Source: Oscillospiraceae bacterium (lineage in GTDB: Bacteria; Bacillota; Clostridia; Oscillospirales; Oscillospiraceae). From it: a DNA stretch of 64,000 nucleotides. Location of the stretch: contig WQUY01000002.1 in NCBI GenBank assembly GCA_009781855.1, positions 10,017 through 74,016 on the forward strand. Reading direction: 5' to 3'. Positions 2,415 through 59,499 of the stretch are shown here, piece after piece. The position numbers and the translations under genes are program-made. Positions within the stretch are counted from its first letter, which is position 1; each line of letters begins with the position of its first letter. A model generated the notes under the pieces. The model searched no databases. It was not told where the DNA came from and worked only from the letters and a program-made list of their open reading frames with translations.

Positions 2415-3374
2415 ATGGGACAGAAAGTTAATCCACACGGATTTCGAGTCGGCGTCATAAAAGACTGGGATTCCCGTTGGTATGCCCGCGAGGACAAAGT
2501 AGGCGACCTCATAGTTGAAGACTATAACATCCGCAAATACCTCAAAGAGCTGCTGTTTTCGGCAGGTGTTCCGAGAATCGAAATAGAACGCGACAATGCA
2601 AAAGTCAGAATTTTCATCCACTGCTCACGTCCCGGCGTTGTAATCGGCAAGGGTGGTGCGGAGATTGAAAGACTGCGCGTTGAAATGGAAAAGAGAATTG
2701 GCAAGCCTGTCGCCCTTTCGATAGTTGAAGTTAAAAACCCAGACACGAACGCGCAGCTTATTGCTGAAGGCATCGCAGCAAAACTCGAAAAACGCATCGG
2801 ATTCCGCCGTGCGATGAAAAATGCGATGAGCAGAGCAATGCGTCTCGGTGTGCGCGGCATCAAAGTCATGGTAGCTGGTCGTCTGGGCGGTGCTGAAATT
2901 GCAAGAAGTGAAACTTATCACGAGGGTACAATACCGCTCCAAACCATCAGAGCCGATATCGAATATGGCTTTGCAGAAGCAGCGACAACCTATGGCCGTA
3001 TCGGCGTAAAGGTTTGGGTATATAACGGAGAAATCCTGAGCCAGACACTACGTACAACGCCAAGGACTATGGATACTTCAAGACCTCCGAGAGATCGTCG
3101 TGACCGTGACAGAGGTGGACGCGGCGGTGACAGAGGCAGAGGGCCGGGCGGCGGTGGTTACAACCGTGGGCCGGGTGGCGGACAAGGCGGCGGCGGTTAC
3201 AGAGGGCCACAAGGTGGCGGAGGATATAACCGCGGGCCGGGACAAGGCCAGGGTCAAGGCGGATATAACAGACCTCCTCAGGGACAGGGTCAAGGCGGAT
3301 ACAACAGGCCTCCGCAAGGACAAGACCAAGGATCCAGACCTCCGGCTGCTCCTAAGGAAGGAGGTACAGCGTAA
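2415..3374 (+). CDS. rpsC: 30S ribosomal protein S3 with ~109-aa Gly/Arg/Tyr-rich C-terminal extension
   Basis: [13 protein letters not shown]..., KH motif GKGGAEIE. The conserved core ends near aa 210 (VWVYNGEIL), followed by [30 protein letters not shown]...[12 protein letters not shown] x2. Confidence 0.93.
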
Positions 3375-5743: not shown

Positions 5744-6023
5744 ATTTTTCCGTTATGCTTCACCTCACGGACTTGCAGTATAGAGATACAGCGTCGTCCG
5801 CTCGGTTTAGCCTAACAAAAAAATTCTCTCACGAGGGAACCTCGTGGTAAGCTTCCGTTATGCTTCACCTCACGGACTTGCAGTATAGAGATACAGCGTC
5901 GTCCGCTCGGTTTGGCTTAACAAAAAATTTCTCTCACGAGGGAACCTCGTGGTAAGCTTCTGTTATGCTTCACCTTTCGGTTTAGCCTAACAAAAATCTC
6001 CCTTTCGAGGGGGGAACCGCGTG
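5733..6023 (+). repeat. Tandem direct repeat: 107 + 105 + ~79 bp (third copy has an internal ~38-bp deletion); each unit starts with CCTCGTGGTAA
   Basis: Unit starts at 5733, 5840 and 5945. Copies 1 and 2 are near-identical over ~105 nt. The first unit begins with the last 11 nt of rpsZ including its stop. Each unit junction forms the hairpin CACGAGG-GAA-CCTCGTG. Confidence 0.9.
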
Positions 6024-15019: not shown

Positions 15020-15026
15020 GGTGATT

Positions 15027-15072
15027 AAAAAAAGCTGCTTGCCGTCGTTGTGATGGCAAGCAGCTTTTCTAT
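15027..15072. terminator. Bidirectional intrinsic terminator ending the alpha operon
   Basis: AAAAAAGCTGCTTGCC-(11 nt)-GGCAAGCAGCTTTTCT: 13-bp stem flanked by an A-run and a T-run, between convergent rplQ (+) and the PPIase gene (-). Confidence 0.85.
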
Positions 15073-18650: not shown

Positions 18651-18687
18651 CATTGTAATCATGGATTTACGATGTTGATTCGACCTT

Positions 18688-18741
18688 GTAGGGGACGATG
18701 TCCACATCGTCCTGCGGGCTGATGTAGACATCAGCCCCTAC
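18688..18741. repeat. 54-nt double-hairpin element (copy E1)
   Basis: GTAGGGG[ACGATG-TCCA-CATCGT]CCTGCGGG[CTGATG-TAGA-CATCAG]CCCCTAC. It is the reverse complement (with substitutions) of the element at 57254..57307 and lies between convergent gene ends. Confidence 0.85.
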
Positions 18742-18800
18742 ATAGCAGAATCATTAGCAATATCCATGCATCTCAGTACTTTTGGCGGCTGAAGTACGCG

Positions 18801-20541: not shown

Positions 20542-21401
20542 GCAGAAACAATGGAACATTCGAGGTTATTCCGATTGAAAATGAGAAAATCTGTGCGGTG
20601 CGTTTTTTATATAATACGGTTTTTGGTAGGATGATTCTGAAGCTTCTGACAATGCCAGCCATTTCAAAATTTCTGGGCATGATAATGGATAGCAGGGTGT
20701 CAAAGCTACTTATCCCGGGATTTATTAAGAAGAACAATATTGATTTGAGTGATTTTTTGGACGAGCAATACAATTCGTTCAATGATTTTTTTGTGCGCGA
20801 AATAAAAAAGGAACTCAGGCCTTTTCCCGCTGACTATGCAGAGGCAGGTGCGCCCTGTGATGGGAAGCTCTCGGCGTATGAGATCACAGATGACAGTGTG
20901 TTTCAGATAAAAAACTCCAAATATACCATTGAAGATTTGCTCCGGGACAAGGGGCTGGCTGATGAATATTCAGGTGGAGTGTGTTTGATTTACAGGCTTT
21001 CTCCCGATGATTATCATAGGTATGTGTATGCCGATGATGGTGAGATTTATTTGCATAGGAAGCTTGAGGGTGTCCTGCATACGGTTCGGCCGATTGTGCA
21101 TGAAAAATACAGTGTCTTCACTCAAAATGCGAGAGAGTACACTGTATTTCAAACTGAAAACTTTGGGAAAGTAATTCAAATGGAAGTGGGGGCTCTTTTT
21201 GTCGGCAGGATTATCAATCATGTGACGAGTGGAAAGGTGAAGCGTGCTGCCGAAAAAGGTATGTTTCAATTTGGTGGTTCAACGGTGATTATGCTATTTC
21301 GGAAAGGTGCAATTGAGTTGAATCCTATTTTCTTGGAGCACACGCAAAATGATGCAGAAACTTTGGTTAAAATGGGTGAAGTGATAGGCAGAGCGCCTTG
21401 A
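20538..21401 (+). CDS. psd: Phosphatidylserine decarboxylase proenzyme
   Basis: ATG 20538 (ATGA overlap with pssA); ...DYHRYVY...; self-cleavage region FQFGGSTVIMLF. Confidence 0.88.
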   Translation: MSRNNGTFEVIPIENEKICAVRFLYNTVFGRMILKLLTMPAISKFLGMIMDSRVSKLLIPGFIKKNNIDLSDFLDEQYNSFNDFFVREIKKELRPFPADYAEAGAPCDGKLSAYEITDDSVFQIKNSKYTIEDLLRDKGLADEYSGGVCLIYRLSPDDYHRYVYADDGEIYLHRKLEGVLHTVRPIVHEKYSVFTQNAREYTVFQTENFGKVIQMEVGALFVGRIINHVTSGKVKRAAEKGMFQFGGSTVIMLFRKGAIELNPIFLEHTQNDAETLVKMGEVIGRAP

Positions 21402-21413
21402 TAACACACAATC

Positions 21414-21511
21414 TGGGATGCTGGGGTCTGACTAATGATTTTCTGTTTTGCTCGGAACGGGTCTCGTCGCCCTACACTTCGCAAAACAGAAAACCATCAG
21501 CCAGCCCCTTG
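21414..21511 (-). repeat. ~100-nt long-hairpin repeat, copy A (subfamily 1)
   Basis: By my hand comparison, identical over 98 nt to the reverse complement of 57123..57220. 24-position stem around the conserved 29-nt loop TCGGAACGGGTCTCGTCGCCCTACACTTC. The strand is assigned from G.U pairing. Confidence 0.9.
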
Positions 21512-21524
21512 ATGGCCTGTGCGC

Positions 21525-21560
21525 GGGACGCTGGGGTGTTATTAATGGTTTTGTTGGTTC
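21525..21560 (-). repeat. Partial (one-arm) copy of the long-hairpin repeat
   Basis: GGGACGCTGGGGTGTTATTAATGGTTTTGTTGGTTC resembles the left arm of copy A. Confidence 0.6.
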
Positions 21561-21575
21561 AGTCCAGTAAGTCTG

Positions 21576-22880
21576 TTACCCGGGGGCTTTTTTTATATCG
21601 CCGATTGCCCTGATTATCGGCAGCAACAGCATAGCAGTCAAACCGGCGGCAAGACCATTGTTATAAAGATTCATCCCACCGTGAAACACAGCAACATTTG
21701 CAGCAAAAGTGAGATGGATAAACCCAGCAACCACACCCCACCTCCAGCCGAACTTAGTACAAAGAGGTGACAAGCAAGTGGAGAACAAAACTGCCACAAG
21801 AAATCCAGCGCTGTTAAACGGTGTGCCTGTTGCAAGCATACTGACCGTAGAAGCGAGCAAAGCGCCAGCCATGAGCGGAACGGCCGATAATATACGCTTG
21901 CCGATAGCGCCGAATCCGATGACTGAGATGGCCGCCCCGATTATAGGGCCATTATATTGCCCATTTACCGCAAGCATCACAATCGCGCACAAAAGCCCCA
22001 TGAGTCCCATGTTTATAAAAGACCTGCCGCTGTATTGAGTGTAGAAGTCGTTGCCATCAGCTTTCATATAGGCCATCTCAATAAAGCTTGCGTTTTTGCG
22101 AGAAAGCAAGCCGCAGATAAGAAAATATAACGAAACGCCCACAAGAAATAGCGACAAATGCAAGTTAACGCCCTCACTCCAGATGCTGAGTGGCGCAAAG
22201 TCTATGCCCATAGTCCGCAAAATAACCATGATGCAGATGGACAGCATTCCGGCGGCAAATCCAACATTGTAAAGGTTATAATCTTCATAGTTTACTTTGA
22301 GGGCTTTTGCCAATGGATTGATAACCAGCCCGATGAAGATGCCGATGCAGAGGCCGATGATTGCACCTGCAGTGGTGCTTAACTGTTCTACAAAGGCAAG
22401 TTGGGTAACAGCTGGGCCAAGGCATGTGGCGAGCACTGCGGGAAGGACACATGTTTTATAAGGTGTCTTGGTGATTTTGCTATATAAGTATCCTCCGAAT
22501 ATGATGGGCAGCATGTTGATTAGATTTTTTCCAAAAAACGCAAAGCCCGTGACAAGTCCTAATGTACCCAGCGTGAGGCCTATAGGCTCATGCTTGATAA
22601 GTACAAAAATAAGAACGGTTACAAGACCGGATAACCCTACGTTGACATATGTTGCACCAAGACCGGCGGTGGCGATATAGTCGGTAACAAGAATGTCGGG
22701 GGAGCGGATGATTGTCCTGAGTCCCTGCAAAACTTCACAGGGCGTTGCGTAAGCGAAGCCAAGGGCAATAATCAGGCAAAATAGGATGGTAAATACCCTG
22801 TATGGACATCTAAGGAAATTACTTTGAAGCCAATTCAATTTTTCAGGGATTTCTGATTTAGTTGTCAAGTTCCACCTCAT
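21576..22880 (-). CDS. Polytopic membrane protein with internal tandem duplication (DUF1576-like)
   Basis: 434 aa, about 12 TM. The N and C halves share the pattern ...G(F)GA(F)GK..L...P(I/L)..G.... The family name is from memory, not verified. Confidence 0.6.
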   Translation of the reverse strand: MRWNLTTKSEIPEKLNWLQSNFLRCPYRVFTILFCLIIALGFAYATPCEVLQGLRTIIRSPDILVTDYIATAGLGATYVNVGLSGLVTVLIFVLIKHEPIGLTLGTLGLVTGFAFFGKNLINMLPIIFGGYLYSKITKTPYKTCVLPAVLATCLGPAVTQLAFVEQLSTTAGAIIGLCIGIFIGLVINPLAKALKVNYEDYNLYNVGFAAGMLSICIMVILRTMGIDFAPLSIWSEGVNLHLSLFLVGVSLYFLICGLLSRKNASFIEMAYMKADGNDFYTQYSGRSFINMGLMGLLCAIVMLAVNGQYNGPIIGAAISVIGFGAIGKRILSAVPLMAGALLASTVSMLATGTPFNSAGFLVAVLFSTCLSPLCTKFGWRWGVVAGFIHLTFAANVAVFHGGMNLYNNGLAAGLTAMLLLPIIRAIGDIKKAPG

Positions 22881-25359: not shown

Positions 25360-27715
<2,356 letters not shown>

Positions 27716-28458: not shown

Positions 28459-29691
28459 TTAAATCAATTCTAAAAGACGGGTTCCTATTTTTTCTACGAT
28501 TGGCACAACGAGTGCATTCCCCATTGTGAAATATCTGAACTTTTCGGGCATTCCGGTATTTGTCCAGTTGTCTGCAAAACCGTTTAATCGTTCACATTCG
28601 ACAGGTGTTAAGAGACGAAGTCTGCCAGTTGCCGCATCCTCAATGACATGAGTGCTTCTATTTACACTAGATTCACTTGTAAGCATTGTGCGCGCAGGTC
28701 GGTCAAGATGGTCAGGGAAACATAAAGCACCTTCGCTAAAAAAATATGGTTCACCATTTGGACGCACGCGCGGTATCTTCTTCGACCCTTTTAGAAACTT
28801 CCACTTCTCAAGTGAGCCGTTGAGGAAGAATCTTTCATCTACAGGTTCCGTGTGGCGAATTTCGCCTAGCGTCACAGGTTGTGTGTCCACTGGAACAACT
28901 TCATTTGAGATGATGTGTCCGTCTATCATAATCCCGGAGTTATAGAAAGAGGCGGAAAAGTTATTTGAAATTTCAGTTAAGTCGTTGTATTTGCTTGAAT
29001 CTATTTGGGTCTTTGTAAACTTCTTTGTATTAACATTATCCTGCACTGGAAAAATTGACGAGAAGAAACCATTGCTGTATAATCGAGAGTGAAGTTGTAA
29101 ACGGCTTTTAGTTTTAACAGCTTGAGCCATCTCGTGATAAATTCCTGTAGAATTTTTGAATGCAGTAATATAAATGCGTCGACGTCTTTGAGCGTGTCCA
29201 TAGTCTGCAGCATTAATTATCCGCCATTCTACAGCGTACCCTAAATCGTGTAAACATCTAAGTATGACGGCAAAGTCGCGACCTCTTTGTGACGCAGGTG
29301 ACTTTAACAAACGATCTACATTTTCAAGGACGACAAAGCTAGGTTGGCGCTCTGTGAGTACGTCTTGTATATGCCACCATAATACGCCCTTTTTACCTTC
29401 AATACCTTGTGCGCCGGTTTTGGCAACAGAATAGTCTTGGCATGGAAAACCACCGACAAGAAGGTCGTGATACGGCACATTATGCTTTTCAGTAGCGATA
29501 TCATTATTAACGTGCGTTGGAATAGCACCAAAATGAGAAACGTAACAATCATAGGCATGCTGTGCCTTTCTGTCAGGTTCCCATTGGTTTGCCCATATAG
29601 TATCGTAGCGGTTTGAACTTTTTTCGAGACCGACGCGAAAACCACCGACACCAGCGAAGAGCTCGGCGACTTTAATTTTGTTATTTGTCAT
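28459..29691 (-). CDS. DNA (cytosine-5)-methyltransferase, M.Sau3AI-like
   Basis: Motifs I ELFAGVGGF, IV GGFPCQDYS, VI VLENV, VIII QRRRR, X GNALVVP. Start placed at ATG 29691 (MTNNKIKVAELFAGVGG) because a TATAAT box lies only 5 nt upstream of the longer ORF start at 29703. Confidence 0.92.
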   Translation of the reverse strand: MTNNKIKVAELFAGVGGFRVGLEKSSNRYDTIWANQWEPDRKAQHAYDCYVSHFGAIPTHVNNDIATEKHNVPYHDLLVGGFPCQDYSVAKTGAQGIEGKKGVLWWHIQDVLTERQPSFVVLENVDRLLKSPASQRGRDFAVILRCLHDLGYAVEWRIINAADYGHAQRRRRIYITAFKNSTGIYHEMAQAVKTKSRLQLHSRLYSNGFFSSIFPVQDNVNTKKFTKTQIDSSKYNDLTEISNNFSASFYNSGIMIDGHIISNEVVPVDTQPVTLGEIRHTEPVDERFFLNGSLEKWKFLKGSKKIPRVRPNGEPYFFSEGALCFPDHLDRPARTMLTSESSVNRSTHVIEDAATGRLRLLTPVECERLNGFADNWTNTGMPEKFRYFTMGNALVVPIVEKIGTRLLELI

Positions 29692-29708
29692 TTTAATCAC
29701 CATTTTGG

Positions 29709-29737
29709 ATTATACCATAGGTTTTGAAAATGATCAA
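29709..29737 (-). promoter_or_regulatory. Sigma-70-type promoter of the methyltransferase gene; GATC inside the -35 hexamer
   Basis: Minus strand reads TTGATC-17 nt-TATAAT with TG at -15/-14 (TGGTATAAT). The -35 box contains GATC (29732..29735). Confidence 0.6.
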
Positions 29738-29832
29738 GGGGTATTAAGGAATTTTGCGGCAACAAATTTAAAATTTAAAAATATCAGATTAATTGCACTT
29801 CGCTATGGGCAAGGACGTAAAAGGAGGCACAT

Positions 29833-31302
29833 GTGCCAAAACATGAATTCAAATTTGTAGATTTAGTCAATCTCCTTGAAAAAGCAAAGGGGCAAACTTT
29901 GGGTGAGGCTGATGTCAATAACGTATTTTATAAAACAATCTCCAATCCAAAAGTCACAGGTATCGCTGGAGATGTTGTTGAGCAGTCTATTTTGAAATAC
30001 CCTCCTGACAATAAGCAAGATGTTGACCTTGTTGTTGATGGTGTAGACACAGAATTAAAGACTACTGGTTTGAAAAGAGTAAAGAGAGGAGACTTCGCAT
30101 TTGACGCTAAGGAACCTGTTAGCGTAACGGCTGTAAGTCCGGAAAAAATAGTTGATGAAGAGTTTGATTATTCTAAGTTGTGGCACAAATTAGAAAACAT
30201 ACTATTTGTGTACTATTTATACGATTCAGACAAAACCGTTCCCGCAGCAGAATATGCTAGTTTTCCTATTCAAGATTACCAGTTTCATAAATTTAGTGAC
30301 GATGACAAGAGGATACTTCAAAATGATTGGGAGATTGTCAGGGATTTTATTCGCAAAGTAAATTCTGAGGAAGAAAATCCATTGTCAAGATATCCGGAAA
30401 TATCAAAATTAAGAGAAAAAATGATGTTTATGGACACTGCACCGAAGTATCCAAACCTGCCTCGTTTTCGATTGCGACGTTCAGTTGTCAGCACAATAAT
30501 AAAGGAACACTTCGGCAAAGATTTCGAACTACTTCAAGGAAGCAACAAGTTTTGTAGTTATGAAGAACTTTACAAAATACTGCGTGACTTCGCAAAGAAT
30601 CAAAAAGGGAAAAACATAACGCATATTGCACAAAGTTTAAATATAGTCTTAAAAAGAAACCTTAGCGGCGTTGTTAATAAATCTGTTGCAGAGCGTGTGT
30701 TAACAGCTGCCTTTGGTGCTGAGTCTGGAAAACTGAGAGATATAGAAGTTTTTGCTAAAATTGGTATAATTCCCAAAACAATAACTCTATCTTCAAAAGG
30801 ATTCAGAACCGAAGACACAAAGTTGGATGCAATAGATTTTGTTGAATGGGCTGATATGAGCATTAAATTTGAAGAATCAAGTGTTTACAACTATTTTGCG
30901 AACCATTCAATGCTATTCTCTGTATTCCAAGAGCCGCACGCAAAGTCGCCATTAGAAGAAAATGTTTTTCTTGGATTCAAACGTCTAAGTTTTGACGATG
31001 AATTCATATATAAACACGTAAAGCCGACGTGGGATAGGGTCAGAGAGTTAGTAAATAACAATGAACTTACGGTAGGTGAAAAACTTACTAAGTATGGAGA
31101 CTCCATAGTAAACAAGTCTGGTACGAGAATGGAAGCAACAAATTTTCCTAAATCTAAGGATTATGTCGTTTTCATAAGAGGGTCAGCACAGGACTCGACT
31201 AAAAAAACCTATACAATAAACGGATTAAACATGTACCCGCAACAATTTTGGATTAAAGGGAAAGTTTTAGTAGAAATGCTTTCAAAGATTGAGTTTATTT
31301 AA
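29833..31302 (+). CDS. Type II restriction endonuclease, MutH/Sau3AI family (expected GATC)
   Basis: 489 aa, GTG start behind AAAGGAGG; MutH-like catalytic motif DLVVDGVDTELKT; divergent from the m5C methyltransferase; AT-rich relative to flanks. Confidence 0.82.
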   Translation: MPKHEFKFVDLVNLLEKAKGQTLGEADVNNVFYKTISNPKVTGIAGDVVEQSILKYPPDNKQDVDLVVDGVDTELKTTGLKRVKRGDFAFDAKEPVSVTAVSPEKIVDEEFDYSKLWHKLENILFVYYLYDSDKTVPAAEYASFPIQDYQFHKFSDDDKRILQNDWEIVRDFIRKVNSEEENPLSRYPEISKLREKMMFMDTAPKYPNLPRFRLRRSVVSTIIKEHFGKDFELLQGSNKFCSYEELYKILRDFAKNQKGKNITHIAQSLNIVLKRNLSGVVNKSVAERVLTAAFGAESGKLRDIEVFAKIGIIPKTITLSSKGFRTEDTKLDAIDFVEWADMSIKFEESSVYNYFANHSMLFSVFQEPHAKSPLEENVFLGFKRLSFDDEFIYKHVKPTWDRVRELVNNNELTVGEKLTKYGDSIVNKSGTRMEATNFPKSKDYVVFIRGSAQDSTKKTYTINGLNMYPQQFWIKGKVLVEMLSKIEFI

Positions 31303-31785: not shown

Positions 31786-31874
31786 TGGCGGAGAGGGTGG
31801 GATTCGAACCCACGTGGGCTTGCACCCTAACGGTTTTCAAGACCGCCCCGTTATGACCACTTCGGTACCTCTCC
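31786..31874 (-). tRNA. tRNA-Ser (anticodon UGA), encoded CCA
   Basis: Reverse complement GGAGAGGTACCGAAGTGGTCATAACGGGGCGGTCTTGAAAACCGTTAGGGTGCAAGCCCACGTGGGTTCGAATCCCACCCTCTCCGCCA. It has a 7-bp acceptor stem, anticodon loop CTTGAAA, long variable arm and T-loop GGTTCGAATCC. Confidence 0.93.
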
Positions 31875-53476: not shown

Positions 53477-53486
53477 AGTATCTCCC

Positions 53487-53570
53487 GAGACAAGGGACGG
53501 TTCCTCTGTCTTACAAAAGTAATTAAGTACATAAAACTCGCTTAAAACAGAGGAACCGTCCCTCTGTCTC
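53487..53570 (-). repeat. Pair of inverted hairpin modules in the comF-mreB spacer; the upstream one (53547..53567, minus) looks like the comF terminator
   Basis: Arms GAGACAAGGGACGGTTCCTCTGT (53487..53509) and ACAGAGGAACCGTCCCTCTGTCTC (53547..53570) are inverted copies separated by 37 nt. On the minus strand, ACAGAGG-GACGGTT-CCTCTGT is followed by TTTAAG. Confidence 0.6.
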
Positions 53571-53594
53571 CGAACTCATAAGCAACAAAGCGGC

Positions 53595-56515: not shown

Positions 56516-56965
56516 TTACATCGTCTCCGTATCAAACAAAATGGTCACAGGCCCATCATTTACTGAAGCAACATCCATCATCGCCCCAAACTCGCCTGTC
56601 TCAACAGTATGCCCCAGAGCCTTGCACTCTCTGATAAACAATTCATACAAAGGAATCGCAGTATCAGGTCTTGCAGCTTCAGTAAAGCCGGGGCGACGAC
56701 TCTTGCAATCAGCATATAAAGTGAACTGAGAAATCACTAAAATGCTGCCACCGGAAGCGACCAAATCCAGATTCATTTTTCCATCATTATCGCTGAAAAC
56801 TCTCAAATTGCAAATCTTGGCAGCAAGCTTTTTTGCCTCGGTTTCGGTATCGCCATTTTTTATTCCCAGCAAAATTAAAAACCCATTGTCAATTGCACCT
56901 GAAACAGCACCGTCGATGGTAACCGACGCAGAAGAAACCCTTGTAACAACTGCTCTCAATGACAT
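56516..56965 (-). CDS. dtd: D-aminoacyl-tRNA deacylase
   Basis: ORF 57097 trimmed to ATG 56965 (MSLRAVVTRV...). TTG 56959 would give the canonical MRAVVTRV with 8-nt SD spacing. ...SQFTLYAD...; the discarded N-terminus is translation of repeat C. Confidence 0.9.
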   Translation of the reverse strand: MSLRAVVTRVSSASVTIDGAVSGAIDNGFLILLGIKNGDTETEAKKLAAKICNLRVFSDNDGKMNLDLVASGGSILVISQFTLYADCKSRRPGFTEAARPDTAIPLYELFIRECKALGHTVETGEFGAMMDVASVNDGPVTILFDTETM

Positions 56966-57007
56966 ATCCTCCAATATTTCGGACTTGTAAACACCCAGCA
57001 TACCAGG

Positions 57008-57108
57008 CTTACAGGGTGTTGCTGATGGTTTTTTGTTTCGCGAAGTGTAGGGCGACGAGACCGGTTCCGAGCGAAACAACAAAATCATTAGTAACACCCC
57101 AGCACTCC
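57008..57108 (+). repeat. Long-hairpin repeat, copy C (subfamily 2)
   Basis: Reverse complement is near-identical to copy B (25394..25495). Confidence 0.88.
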
Positions 57109-57122
57109 AGAGCGCAGACCGT

Positions 57123-57220
57123 CAAGGGGCTGGCTGATGGTTTTCTGTTTTGCGAAGTGTAGGGCGACGAGACCCGTTCCGAGCAAAACAGAAAATCATT
57201 AGTCAGACCCCAGCATCCCA
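57123..57220 (+). repeat. Long-hairpin repeat, copy D (subfamily 1)
   Basis: Reverse complement matches copy A (21414..21511) over 98 nt by hand comparison. On this strand all 24 stem positions pair (21 Watson-Crick plus 3 G.U). Confidence 0.9.
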
Positions 57221-57253
57221 GAACACAGGTCGGCAAGGGAATAAATATTCCGC

Positions 57254-57307
57254 GTAGGGTCTGATGTCCACATCAGACCGCGGGACGATGCGGGCATCGT
57301 CCCCTAC
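57254..57307. repeat. 54-nt double-hairpin element (copy E2)
   Basis: GTAGGG[TCTGATG-TCCA-CATCAGA]CCGCGG[GACGATG-CGGG-CATCGTC]CCCTAC, 5 nt downstream of the relA stop. Confidence 0.85.
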
Positions 57308-57312
57308 GAGGT

Positions 57313-59499
57313 CTAGCCATCCATTCTGCGCACATCAGTAACACCCGGAACAGACATGATTTTAGCCATCGCAGAAACGAGCTCATCCCTGTTTTTGACC
57401 CCGATATCTATAGACACAATAACATTACCCCCGCCGGTAGCCTTTGCATTAAAAGAAGAAATCTTTACATTCAACGCATTTAACACAGAAGCGATATCAA
57501 CCACTATGCCCGTTCGATCACGAATCTCAACCTGAACACTAGTCATATAAACATGCCCATCGGTCTCAGCCCAACCAACACGCACCCAACGACCTGCGTC
57601 CTCCGACCCCTTTTCGAAATGGATATAATTTACGCAATCCTGCCTATGAACCGACACGCCAAACCCCCTGGTAATAAAACCAACCACCGGATCGCCCGGC
57701 ACCGGAGAACAACACTTTGCAAACTTGACAAGACAATTATCCAAACCCTCAACAGTAACACCCAAGACAGGCTTGAGCTTTGGCTCCTCCCTCTTCTCAA
57801 GTTTTGTGAGCAAAGACGACTCTTTTTTCTTATTCTTTTCGGCAGTGCGTAAATAATCACGAATCTTATGCACAACCTTCTGTGCAGAAATACCACCATA
57901 ACCAATCGCCGCATACAAATCTTCGATTGAATTAAAAGAAGTCCGAGTCAAAACCCTTGACATCAAATCCTCGCTCGAAAGCTCGGACATCTGGATGTTT
58001 TCGTGGCGCATCTCAGTTTCGAATGCCATTTTACCATGAATGACATTTTCTTCACGCTTCTCTTTCTTAAACCACTGACGAATCTTGTTTCTCGCCTCTG
58101 CACTCCTGATGATATCCAACCAGTCGCGGCTCGGGCCCTTTGCAGCATTTGAAGTATGGATTTTGACAATATCACCATTATGTAAAATATGCGTATATGG
58201 AACCAAACGTCCATTGACGATGGCTCCGGTCATCCTGTTGCCCACCTCAGAATGGATACTGTAGGCAAAATCGATTGGCGTTGAACCGGCTGGAAGATTT
58301 ACGACATCGCCGCTCGGAGTGAAAACAAAAACCTCATCGGCAAACATGTCAACTTTAAGCGCATGCAGAAAATCCTGAGCATCACTATCTTGCTGTGACT
58401 CCAGAAGCCGCCTGACCCAGGCAAATTTTTCCTCGTCAGCGACCTTTCCACCCTTACCCTCTTTATACTTCCAATGAGCCGCAATGCCATATTCAGCTGT
58501 TTGATGCATTTCCCATGTACGTATCTGCACCTCAAACGGAAGACCCTCATTACCGATAACTGTTGTATGCAGACTTTGATACATATTCGGCTTAGGCGTT
58601 CCAATATAATCTTTAAAAGCACCCGGAATCGGACGGTACATCTCATGAATATAACCCAGAACATTATAACAATCGGCAATGTCATTAACGATTACGCGAA
58701 AGGCGTAGAGATCCAAAACTTCTGACAGCACCTTATTATCGCCGTACATCTTTCTATAGATACTGTATAGATGCTTTATCCGCCCATTGACGGCACACTC
58801 GATTCCGTGCGCACTGAGACGCTCGGTGATTTTGGTTTGAACACGACTAAAGAAGCTCTCGTCCTCAACATGACGCAGCTTCAACCCATCTATGATTTCC
58901 TTACATCCGATGGGGTCGAGGTATTGGATAGACAAGTCCTCCAACTCCCATTTGACCTTTTGCATACCGAGCCTGTGGGCGATTGGCGCATACATTTCCA
59001 TTGTTTCAAGCGCCTTTTCACGCTGCTTTTCCCGTGCCACATATTCCATAGTTCTCATATTATGGAGCCGGTCAGCAATCTTTATGAGAATGACACGTAT
59101 ATCCTGAGCCATTGCAATCAGCATTTTGCGCAGATTCTCCATCTGCTCTTCTTCTTTGCTGGTATATTGCACACGCGTAAGCTTTGTTACGCCATCAACT
59201 ATCTGAGCAACATCTTGCCCGAAATGCTTCTTTATATCGTCAAAAGTAACGTCGGTATCCTCAATGCAGTCATGCAGAAGTGCAGCGCATAAAGAATCCT
59301 CATCAAGCCCTATCTCAGCGACAATTTCTGCGGAAGCGAGCGGATGAGTAATGTATTCACTGCCATCCTTGCGCATCTGCGTGCCGTGGGCTTTTCGGGC
59401 AAAATCAAAAGCGGCCCGGATGCGGCTCATATCTGCGCCGGGATGGCTTTCAAGTATAACATTTTCTAAATGATGATATCTCTCGAGTACGTCATCCAT
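57313..59499 (-). CDS. relA: Bifunctional (p)ppGpp synthetase/hydrolase RelA/SpoT (Rel)
   Basis: ORF 59574 trimmed to ATG 59499 (MDDVLERYHHL...). HD domain ...HPLASAEIV...LLHDCIEDT...; 728 aa; C-terminal ACT region. Confidence 0.93.
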   Translation of the reverse strand: MDDVLERYHHLENVILESHPGADMSRIRAAFDFARKAHGTQMRKDGSEYITHPLASAEIVAEIGLDEDSLCAALLHDCIEDTDVTFDDIKKHFGQDVAQIVDGVTKLTRVQYTSKEEEQMENLRKMLIAMAQDIRVILIKIADRLHNMRTMEYVAREKQREKALETMEMYAPIAHRLGMQKVKWELEDLSIQYLDPIGCKEIIDGLKLRHVEDESFFSRVQTKITERLSAHGIECAVNGRIKHLYSIYRKMYGDNKVLSEVLDLYAFRVIVNDIADCYNVLGYIHEMYRPIPGAFKDYIGTPKPNMYQSLHTTVIGNEGLPFEVQIRTWEMHQTAEYGIAAHWKYKEGKGGKVADEEKFAWVRRLLESQQDSDAQDFLHALKVDMFADEVFVFTPSGDVVNLPAGSTPIDFAYSIHSEVGNRMTGAIVNGRLVPYTHILHNGDIVKIHTSNAAKGPSRDWLDIIRSAEARNKIRQWFKKEKREENVIHGKMAFETEMRHENIQMSELSSEDLMSRVLTRTSFNSIEDLYAAIGYGGISAQKVVHKIRDYLRTAEKNKKKESSLLTKLEKREEPKLKPVLGVTVEGLDNCLVKFAKCCSPVPGDPVVGFITRGFGVSVHRQDCVNYIHFEKGSEDAGRWVRVGWAETDGHVYMTSVQVEIRDRTGIVVDIASVLNALNVKISSFNAKATGGGNVIVSIDIGVKNRDELVSAMAKIMSVPGVTDVRRMDG

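Follow-up and report, generated by a model that had tools for sequence, protein, structure and literature searches.

GTAG-tagged REPs are short palindromes that carry a 5′ GT[AG]G at the foot of a hairpin and are cleaved and rejoined by RAYT/TnpA_REP enzymes (PMC6006769; PMC3733652). G·T pairs are common in REPs, as are subfamilies with complementary stem changes, and in Anabaena variabilis GTAG-15 dimers are embedded in long palindromes that are never found without their core (PMC3733652). In a 2013 survey, GTAG repeats were confined to Proteobacteria, Cyanobacteria, Chloroflexi and the PVC group, with none reported for Firmicutes (PMC3733652). Hairpin-forming bacterial MITEs are intergenic elements of 70–300 bp that have long inverted arms and are co-transcribed with their neighbours (PMC3733652).

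The repeat family described here occurs in a 64-kb stretch of DNA from an Oscillospiraceae bacterium (the window; 64,000 nt in full) and has much in common with REP, REPIN and BIME repeats and their RAYT (TnpA_REP Y1) enzymes. Both kinds are extragenic palindromes placed just 3′ of genes, mainly between convergent or same-direction genes, both have frequent G·T pairs and subfamilies defined by complementary stem changes (PMC3733652), and in both, inverted units and conserved linkers make up mosaic clusters. Our element contains a GTAG motif, and canonical GTAG-tagged REP doublets adjoin it. There are also differences: the stem is 27–30 bp here and about 7–15 bp in REPs, GTAG is not at the hairpin foot but in a 29-nt unpaired core, the sequence examined shows no RAYT gene, and the host is a Firmicute. 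The A. variabilis palindromes are alike in that a long inverted repeat frames a GTAG-tagged core (Di Nocera et al. 2013), but that core is a REP dimer, whereas ours is a single half-REP-like 29-mer, and sequence and phylum are unrelated. Relative to bacterial MITEs, the family shows no variable short target-site duplication and no related full-length insertion sequence was found, and its centre is the most conserved part, whereas in MITEs the termini usually are. Long inverted arms and a non-coding nature are also shared with Neisseria Correia/NEMIS, enterobacterial ERIC/IRU, Bacillus cereus bcr1, pneumococcal RUP and BOX elements, to none of which it has known sequence similarity. Modular or tandem variants, in BOX of the form A-Bn-C, are also seen in the element here. 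Integron attC sites, retron msr/msd, CRISPR and type III antitoxin arrays were rejected on anatomy, there being no cassette array, adjacent reverse transcriptase, toxin gene or spacers.

We propose, with a probability of about 0.6, that the family is a short (~100–112 bp), non-coding and non-autonomous intergenic repeat of termite-gut Oscillospiraceae, a mosaic of the MITE and REP-BIME type, and that single-stranded DNA handling by an enzyme encoded elsewhere is probable. It is best read as an undescribed family of an ordinary kind, a small non-autonomous repeat rather than a proven RNA gene.

Copies in the window and architecture of the unit

The window has four occurrences of the 29-nt core TCGGAACGGGTCTCGTCGCCCTACACTTC, against zero matches expected from shuffled sequence. 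Three occurrences are exact (21452, 25433 and, on the minus strand, 57154); the fourth, in copy C at 57042 (minus strand), has one mismatch, a C-to-G change that is the only loop substitution among the window copies. The window holds four full and three partial copies (solo arms), with two associated REP doublets:

18682–18741, no strand assigned: associated GTAG-tagged REP doublet.
18742–18788, plus strand: solo right arm and tail, abutting the REP doublet, between the convergent genes MatE and EamA.
21398–21528, minus strand: copy A, subfamily 1, consisting of tail, left arm, 29-nt loop, right arm and tail (core 21414–21511).
21525–21576, minus strand: solo right arm (21525–21560) and a degenerate short tail module (21563–21576).
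25360–25392, minus strand: solo left arm, 3′ of the copy B tail.
25383–25508, minus strand: copy B, subfamily 2 (hairpin core 25394–25495).
56994–57120, plus strand: copy C, subfamily 2 (core 57008–57108), with a short tail module upstream (57003–57016).
57106–57239, plus strand: copy D, subfamily 1 (core 57123–57220), then a long tail with a CAAGGG end.
57234–57313, no strand assigned: associated GTAG-tagged REP doublet and conserved 20-nt flank CAAGGGAATAAATATTCCGC.

An earlier, sequence-only reading of this DNA had described the four full copies, and the core search and a repeat finder recover them at the same positions. As it had claimed, copy A (21414–21511) is the reverse complement of copy D (57123–57220) without a mismatch over 98 nt, the two lying ~35 kb apart, and copy B is close to the reverse complement of copy C. 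The repeat finder extends the A/D similarity to 117 nt at 96% (21412–21528 and 57106–57222) and gives 96% over 92 nt for B and C (25404–25495 and 57008–57099). The two fragments reported earlier (21525–21560 and 25360–25392) are real, and the solo arm at 18742–18788 raises their number to three. Neither a profile search nor a covariance model run over the whole window with filters off found a fifth full copy; apart from the four copies, the covariance model returned an ordinary terminator (~15020–15070) and one unrelated long hairpin (53478–53571). This hairpin, a single-copy structure in the spacer of mreB and a ComF-like gene, has ~22-bp arms (GAGACAAGGGACGGTTCCTCTGT...) around a 38-nt AT-rich loop, and its sequence is unrelated to the repeat family.

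Two further repeats of a different kind were observed in the window. At 5748–5990, within the ribosomal-protein operon, a 105-nt tandem duplication (two full copies, 97% identical, and a partial third) covers the final codons of rpsN (S14) together with the rpsN-rpsH spacer. The rpsC gene (ribosomal protein S3, 2415–3374) encodes a C-terminal tail of ~90 aa rich in Gly, Gln, Arg and Tyr that is made of 36-nt internal repeats (3243–3314).

Conserved sequence extends beyond the ~100 nt assigned to the repeat earlier, the true unit being longer. It consists of a tail module, a left arm of 27–30 nt, the conserved 29-nt core, the complementary right arm and a second tail, and the module CCAGA-N5-13-CA(A/G)GG is present on either side of every hairpin. 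In copy B (CAAAC) and at locus L042 (TTTCAGA), a tail variant specific to the copy is common to both sides of the hairpin. At 100–112 bp, non-coding and with 27–30 nt complementary arms, the unit has the size and the terminal inverted repeats of a MITE; its ORFs are spurious in all frames.

Units also occur joined and broken. C and D form a head-to-tail tandem pair with a period of 112, and the spurious protein P0001 of the Oscillospiraceae MAG FWC66 implies at least two full tandem units and part of a third. Solo arms occur in the window, where that at 21525–21576 begins immediately past the DUF1576 stop codon, and at metagenome loci L027 and L030. L027 also carries a hybrid unit, with a left arm of subfamily 1 and a right arm of subfamily 2. 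This hybrid looks like the product of unequal exchange inside an array; of the 11 copies aligned below, none folds more weakly. Arm searches of the sequence examined found no widely spaced arm pairs, and no hairpin of left and right arm without the core was seen.

Distribution of the family

Exact protein matches place three window proteins on record (KatG, MCL2391087; RecD2, MCL2391111; CCA enzyme, MCL2391117), and contigs near-identical to the window are present in ENA assembly ERZ27257300. A 19-nt core pattern, searched in one genome per species for 185,579 species, matched four loci, all of them in two termite-gut Oscillospiraceae MAGs (WQWL01 and WQVH01). An 18-nt core pattern searched in JGI metagenomes found true copies only in the termite-gut metagenome Ga0123355, the other matches being about ten chance matches and an unrelated leader family of high-GC contigs. 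In the protein database, the spurious C/D peptide matched only two 'hypothetical proteins' (P0001 and P0002), both from MAG FWC66. The sequence-only reading had pointed to relatives for copy number, and these exact-core scans of 185,579 species genomes and of JGI metagenomes bring seven further distinct copies, all from termite-gut Oscillospiraceae MAGs or the one termite-gut metagenome; diverged relatives would escape scans that require an exact core match. Between the window and the other contigs compared, the repeats alone align, at both the DNA and the translated level. A paper concerning termite-gut MAGs contains the sample name Emb289P1 (PMC7886697).

The leader family is an observation apart. 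About 30 high-GC soil-metagenome contigs (loci L005–L048, for example L012 at 215–400) share the 18-mer GTGTAGGGCGACGAGACC inside a conserved leader of ~150 nt that precedes a hypothetical gene whose ribosome-binding site is strong. With no Rfam match and no significant fold (z −1.4), this leader was rejected as a relative of the element and the shared 18-mer taken as coincidence.

Phage records and plasmid records (blastn) and viral contigs (pattern scan) gave no match to the element. Rfam 15 at gathering thresholds returned tRNA-Ser only over the whole window, and at E ≤ 10 only sub-threshold miRNA-precursor models over 56950–57330, which are generic long-hairpin noise. The core sequence is absent from the searchable papers, which hold nothing relevant on MITEs or repeats in Oscillospiraceae or Ruminococcaceae. 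In Rfam and the literature there is no named family to which the element can be assigned. The tRNA in question, tRNA-Ser(TGA) at 31786–31874, lies just downstream of a DNA methylase gene and an adjoining MutH-domain gene (28459–31302), likely a restriction-modification pair.

Hairpin fold and covariation

Each window copy folds as a single long hairpin with a 27-pair stem around the 29-nt loop. The loop is nearly invariant, with one base differing, as had been described; the stem is longer than the ~24 positions first counted. We call S the strand that reads GGGG/GGGT...GCGAAGTGTAGGGCGACGAGACCCGTTCCGAGC... and W its complement; S corresponds to the plus strand in C/D and to the minus strand in A/B. 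Folding energies in the window copies are −44 to −51 kcal/mol for S (z −5.5 to −8.7) and −35 to −39 kcal/mol for W (z −3.1 to −4.1).

We aligned 11 distinct copies, namely A–D and the seven from other contigs. Standard pairs fill 97.3% of the cells in the 27-pair stem, so that pairing is kept in the further copies, which had been named as the place to look for stem-breaking mismatches. Four stem pairs are changed on both sides (12 cells), with which RNAalifold agrees, none of 500 shuffles reached the observed pairing or covariation, and in slid registers stem pairing falls to 39–59%. These results uphold the proposal of a structured repeat family with two subfamilies. Subfamily 1 (A, D) differs from subfamily 2 (B, C) at four compensated pairs (columns 32/112, 34/110, 49/95 and 55/89), twice the two pairs for which compensation had been claimed. 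The compensatory changes show pressure for arm complementarity. In quasi-palindromes templated correction can also yield compensatory change, so that such change alone does not demonstrate selection on an RNA.

The core varies less than the stem. Among the four window copies, which are free of retrieval bias, 1 of 29 core columns is variable against 12 of 57 stem columns (p = 0.05); with all 11 copies the counts are 1 of 29 and 24 of 60, where retrieval of the outside copies through an exact 18/19-nt core match exaggerates how invariant the core is beyond the window. At the 11 core positions outside the search word, the comparison with stem variability gives p = 0.08. A core that hardly varies would also be compatible with a sequence-specific function for the host.

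In each of the 11 copies S is the better folder, by 4–14 kcal/mol over W, with RNA and DNA parameters in agreement. Subfamily 1 does have the three non-Watson-Crick stem positions noticed earlier, G·U on S and A·C on W (columns 36/109, 39/106 and 43/102), and one of them is G·U in 10 of 11 copies. Counted from the alignment, ~8 events favour S and 2 favour W, three of the former being the inherited G·U positions. The bias is real and comes mainly from these three positions and a few singletons; it is suggestive only and, with so few events behind it, no proof of an RNA.

Genomic setting and RNA-level readings

All copies are intergenic and close to gene ends, starting 10–30 nt past stop codons, and their neighbours are housekeeping genes (psd, katG, relA/dtd, tgt/prfB, an ABC transporter and others). 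Copy A fills the spacer of the convergent genes psd (end 21401) and DUF1576 (end 21576). Between katG and a divergent RNase_T-type exonuclease gene lies copy B, whose end is 30 nt short of the katG ATG (25529); C/D occupy the relA-dtd spacer within a recJ-relA-dtd gene string. Elsewhere the element follows an ABC-transporter gene or a beta-lactamase-domain gene, or lies in the spacer of tgt and prfB (L046) or that of a radical-SAM and a cobW gene. Translation of the element yields the pseudo-peptide recognised earlier and falsely extends two ORFs, katG to 25406 against a true start at 25529 (728 aa, identical to MCL2391087) and dtd to 57097 against ~56965.

In the same-direction spacers (C/D, L001, L003 and L013), S is antisense to the genes in 4 of 4. 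In convergent and divergent spacers both strands of the element could be transcribed, and across these few loci, with convergent and divergent spacers mixed, we found no rule relating orientation to transcription or GC skew. No sigma-70-like promoter was detected in or next to the window copies, no terminator-like site overlaps any copy, and no T-run follows the stem on either strand. Because it lacks a U-tract, the element is not an intrinsic terminator.

This setting bears on a rather unlikely reading in which the element is a host-selected cis-acting mRNA element, a hairpin transcribed within the flanking operons that serves mainly as an RNase III processing site, a barrier to 3′ exonucleases, a pause site or attenuator, or a protein-binding site through its 29-nt loop, and so uncouples or tunes its neighbours, for example relA and dtd or the katG leader. 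The placement just past stop codons, inside the relA-dtd spacer and no more than 30 nt from the katG start codon agrees with such a role, as do a stem kept by compensatory changes, a loop far less variable than the stem, and the convergent pairs tgt/prfB (L046) and psd/DUF1576 (A), where no other terminator-like structure lies between the genes. However, the neighbouring genes are functionally unrelated, termination is denied to the hairpin by the missing U-tract, orientation relative to transcription is not uniform, and the mRNA strand in same-direction spacers is the weaker folder, with A·C mismatches. Solo arms, tandem copies and hybrid units, moreover, typify selfish or recombining repeats rather than regulators. 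A cis-acting function overlaps with our preferred explanation, the mobile-type repeat, of which it may be a domesticated side effect.

The sequence-only reading had favoured an RNA transcribed from the plus strand in C/D and from the minus strand in A/B. On this view the copies would be small structured RNAs, each transcribed independently from the G·U (S) strand, with the invariant loop as the functional site for base-pairing or protein binding. The better folding of S in every copy, the G·U pairs kept at three stem positions and the near-invariance of the loop are what such a family would lead one to expect. Against it, S runs antisense to the neighbouring genes and leaves no space for signals of its own; the window copies have no promoter-like or terminator-like signal in or next to them, and the flanks of the unit are conserved tail modules without −10/−35 boxes. 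Rfam yields generic long-hairpin noise alone, the solo arms and the tandem and hybrid units point to repeat DNA, the strand bias stems from few independent events, and G·T wobble favours S equally as single-stranded DNA, as DNA parameters indicate in all 11 copies. We consider this origin improbable, and the proposed strand of transcription is not supported.

That the copies or their positions were created by metagenome mis-assembly is very improbable: ENA contigs and the window do disagree exactly at the repeats within near-identical DNA, L052 departing from the window inside the left arm of copy C (window 57026; L052 3300–3500) and continuing into bacA, and the first ~93 nt of L050 mismatching the window (about 57234) while matching L003 from a different MAG (identity with L003 runs for ~140 nt), but the element recurs in independent assemblies and bins (JGI Ga0123355; NCBI MAGs WQWL, WQVH, MCL239 and FWC66; ENA ERZ27257300), copy B reads the same in ENA contig L049 (99.99% identical to the window), and the recJ-relA-dtd order of the window is the usual Firmicutes synteny. 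Bacillus subtilis has this order, and on that account we trust the window. The doubt is confined to linkage at C/D, and the element itself is secure. The L050 end and the L052 junction were rejected as insertion polymorphisms, the former being the L003 locus of another MAG and the latter a break inside copy C; they are probably assembly chimeras or breaks at shared repeats. Contigs end or turn chimeric at copies, and the metagenome contigs L027, L030 and L042 end in arrays.

GTAG-tagged REP doublets beside the element

The repeats at 18682–18741 and 57254–57313, 54–60 nt long, are doublets of canonical GTAG-tagged REPs. Each REP unit consists of GTAG, a 9-bp stem (8 bp at 18688) and a 4-nt loop, and two units stand inverted with heads outward; in both doublets the GT[AG]G tag lies at the foot of a short hairpin. 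The doublet at 57254–57313 is placed between copy D and the relA stop codon, and a third lies in L003 at about 950–1030. All three adjoin a long hairpin or a solo arm, and all three carry a tail-like flank ending in CAAGGG. The 2013 survey did not find such repeats in this phylum, the Firmicutes.

The long hairpin resembles these REPs in parts. Its core contains GTAGGG-CGACGAG, which is similar to the REP head GTAGGG-GACGATG, although the complementary half is absent from the core, and its outer stem GGGGCTGGCTGATGG resembles the REP stem GGGGCTGATG. Because GTAG lies in the 29-nt unpaired core, where the bases that follow it have no partner, and not at the foot of a short hairpin, the long-hairpin unit is not a canonical REP. 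In its extragenic position downstream of genes and its clusters of inverted units with conserved linkers, it is BIME-like.

Discussion

The units have multiplied within and between genomes while their hairpin was kept by compensatory changes, and they sit just downstream of genes, single, tandem or truncated, clustered with GTAG-tagged REP doublets. Modules, solo arms, tandem and hybrid units, identical distant copies, intergenic placement, neighbouring REPs and a narrow lineage are what lead us to regard the family as a mosaic non-autonomous repeat. The earlier label 'MITE-like' is reasonable as to size and inverted arms and falls short elsewhere, as there is neither a classical target-site duplication nor a parent insertion sequence. 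Target-site duplications were looked for at copy boundaries, and no classical, variable ones were found; the direct repeats that flank the copies are conserved modules. The tail module is found in conserved form in every copy, which makes it a piece of the repeat or a specific target rather than a classical duplication. No transposase of any kind was found in the 64-kb window or beside copies at other loci (~64 kb plus ~80 kb), no Y1 transposase among the scanned genes of the MAG fragments, and no parent insertion sequence with these arms in the ~64 kb plus ~80 kb of these genomes.

As no transposase was seen, we infer how the repeat would move. The unit would have spread, or been homogenised, as a single-stranded hairpin, most likely through a Y1/HUH enzyme (RAYT or IS200-like) encoded elsewhere in the genome, with the stem and the GTAGGG-bearing core as its recognition features. 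The arms would stay matched through recombination or through templated repair between them. Co-transcription with neighbouring genes would produce a very stable RNA hairpin that could be an RNase III site or stabilise a 3′ end; such RNA-level effects would be a side effect and not the reason for the element's existence.

A more specific version of the mobile-repeat reading, which we offer tentatively and think rather doubtful, is that the long hairpin is a new substrate format for REP-type Y1/HUH (RAYT-like) enzymes, in which a stem of 27–30 bp, extruded from single-stranded DNA, presents the GTAG half-REP in its 29-nt loop and conserved G·T wobbles mark the active strand. Together with the adjacent REP doublets, it would then form the first REP/RAYT-like mosaic system described in Firmicutes. 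If a Y1 transposase does act on the element, the known substrate shapes of REP-type enzymes would be widened.

The family is mildly unusual in its very long stem around a conserved GTAG-bearing core and in the canonical GTAG-tagged REP doublets that accompany it in a Firmicute. It adds a Firmicutes example to the repertoire of small repeats, although no long-standing open question is addressed. In practical terms it accounts for the spurious N-terminal extensions of katG and dtd and for 'hypothetical proteins' in MAG annotations, as well as for contig breaks and chimeras in termite-gut metagenome assemblies, and one group of uncultured Oscillospiraceae might be recognised by it as a lineage marker.
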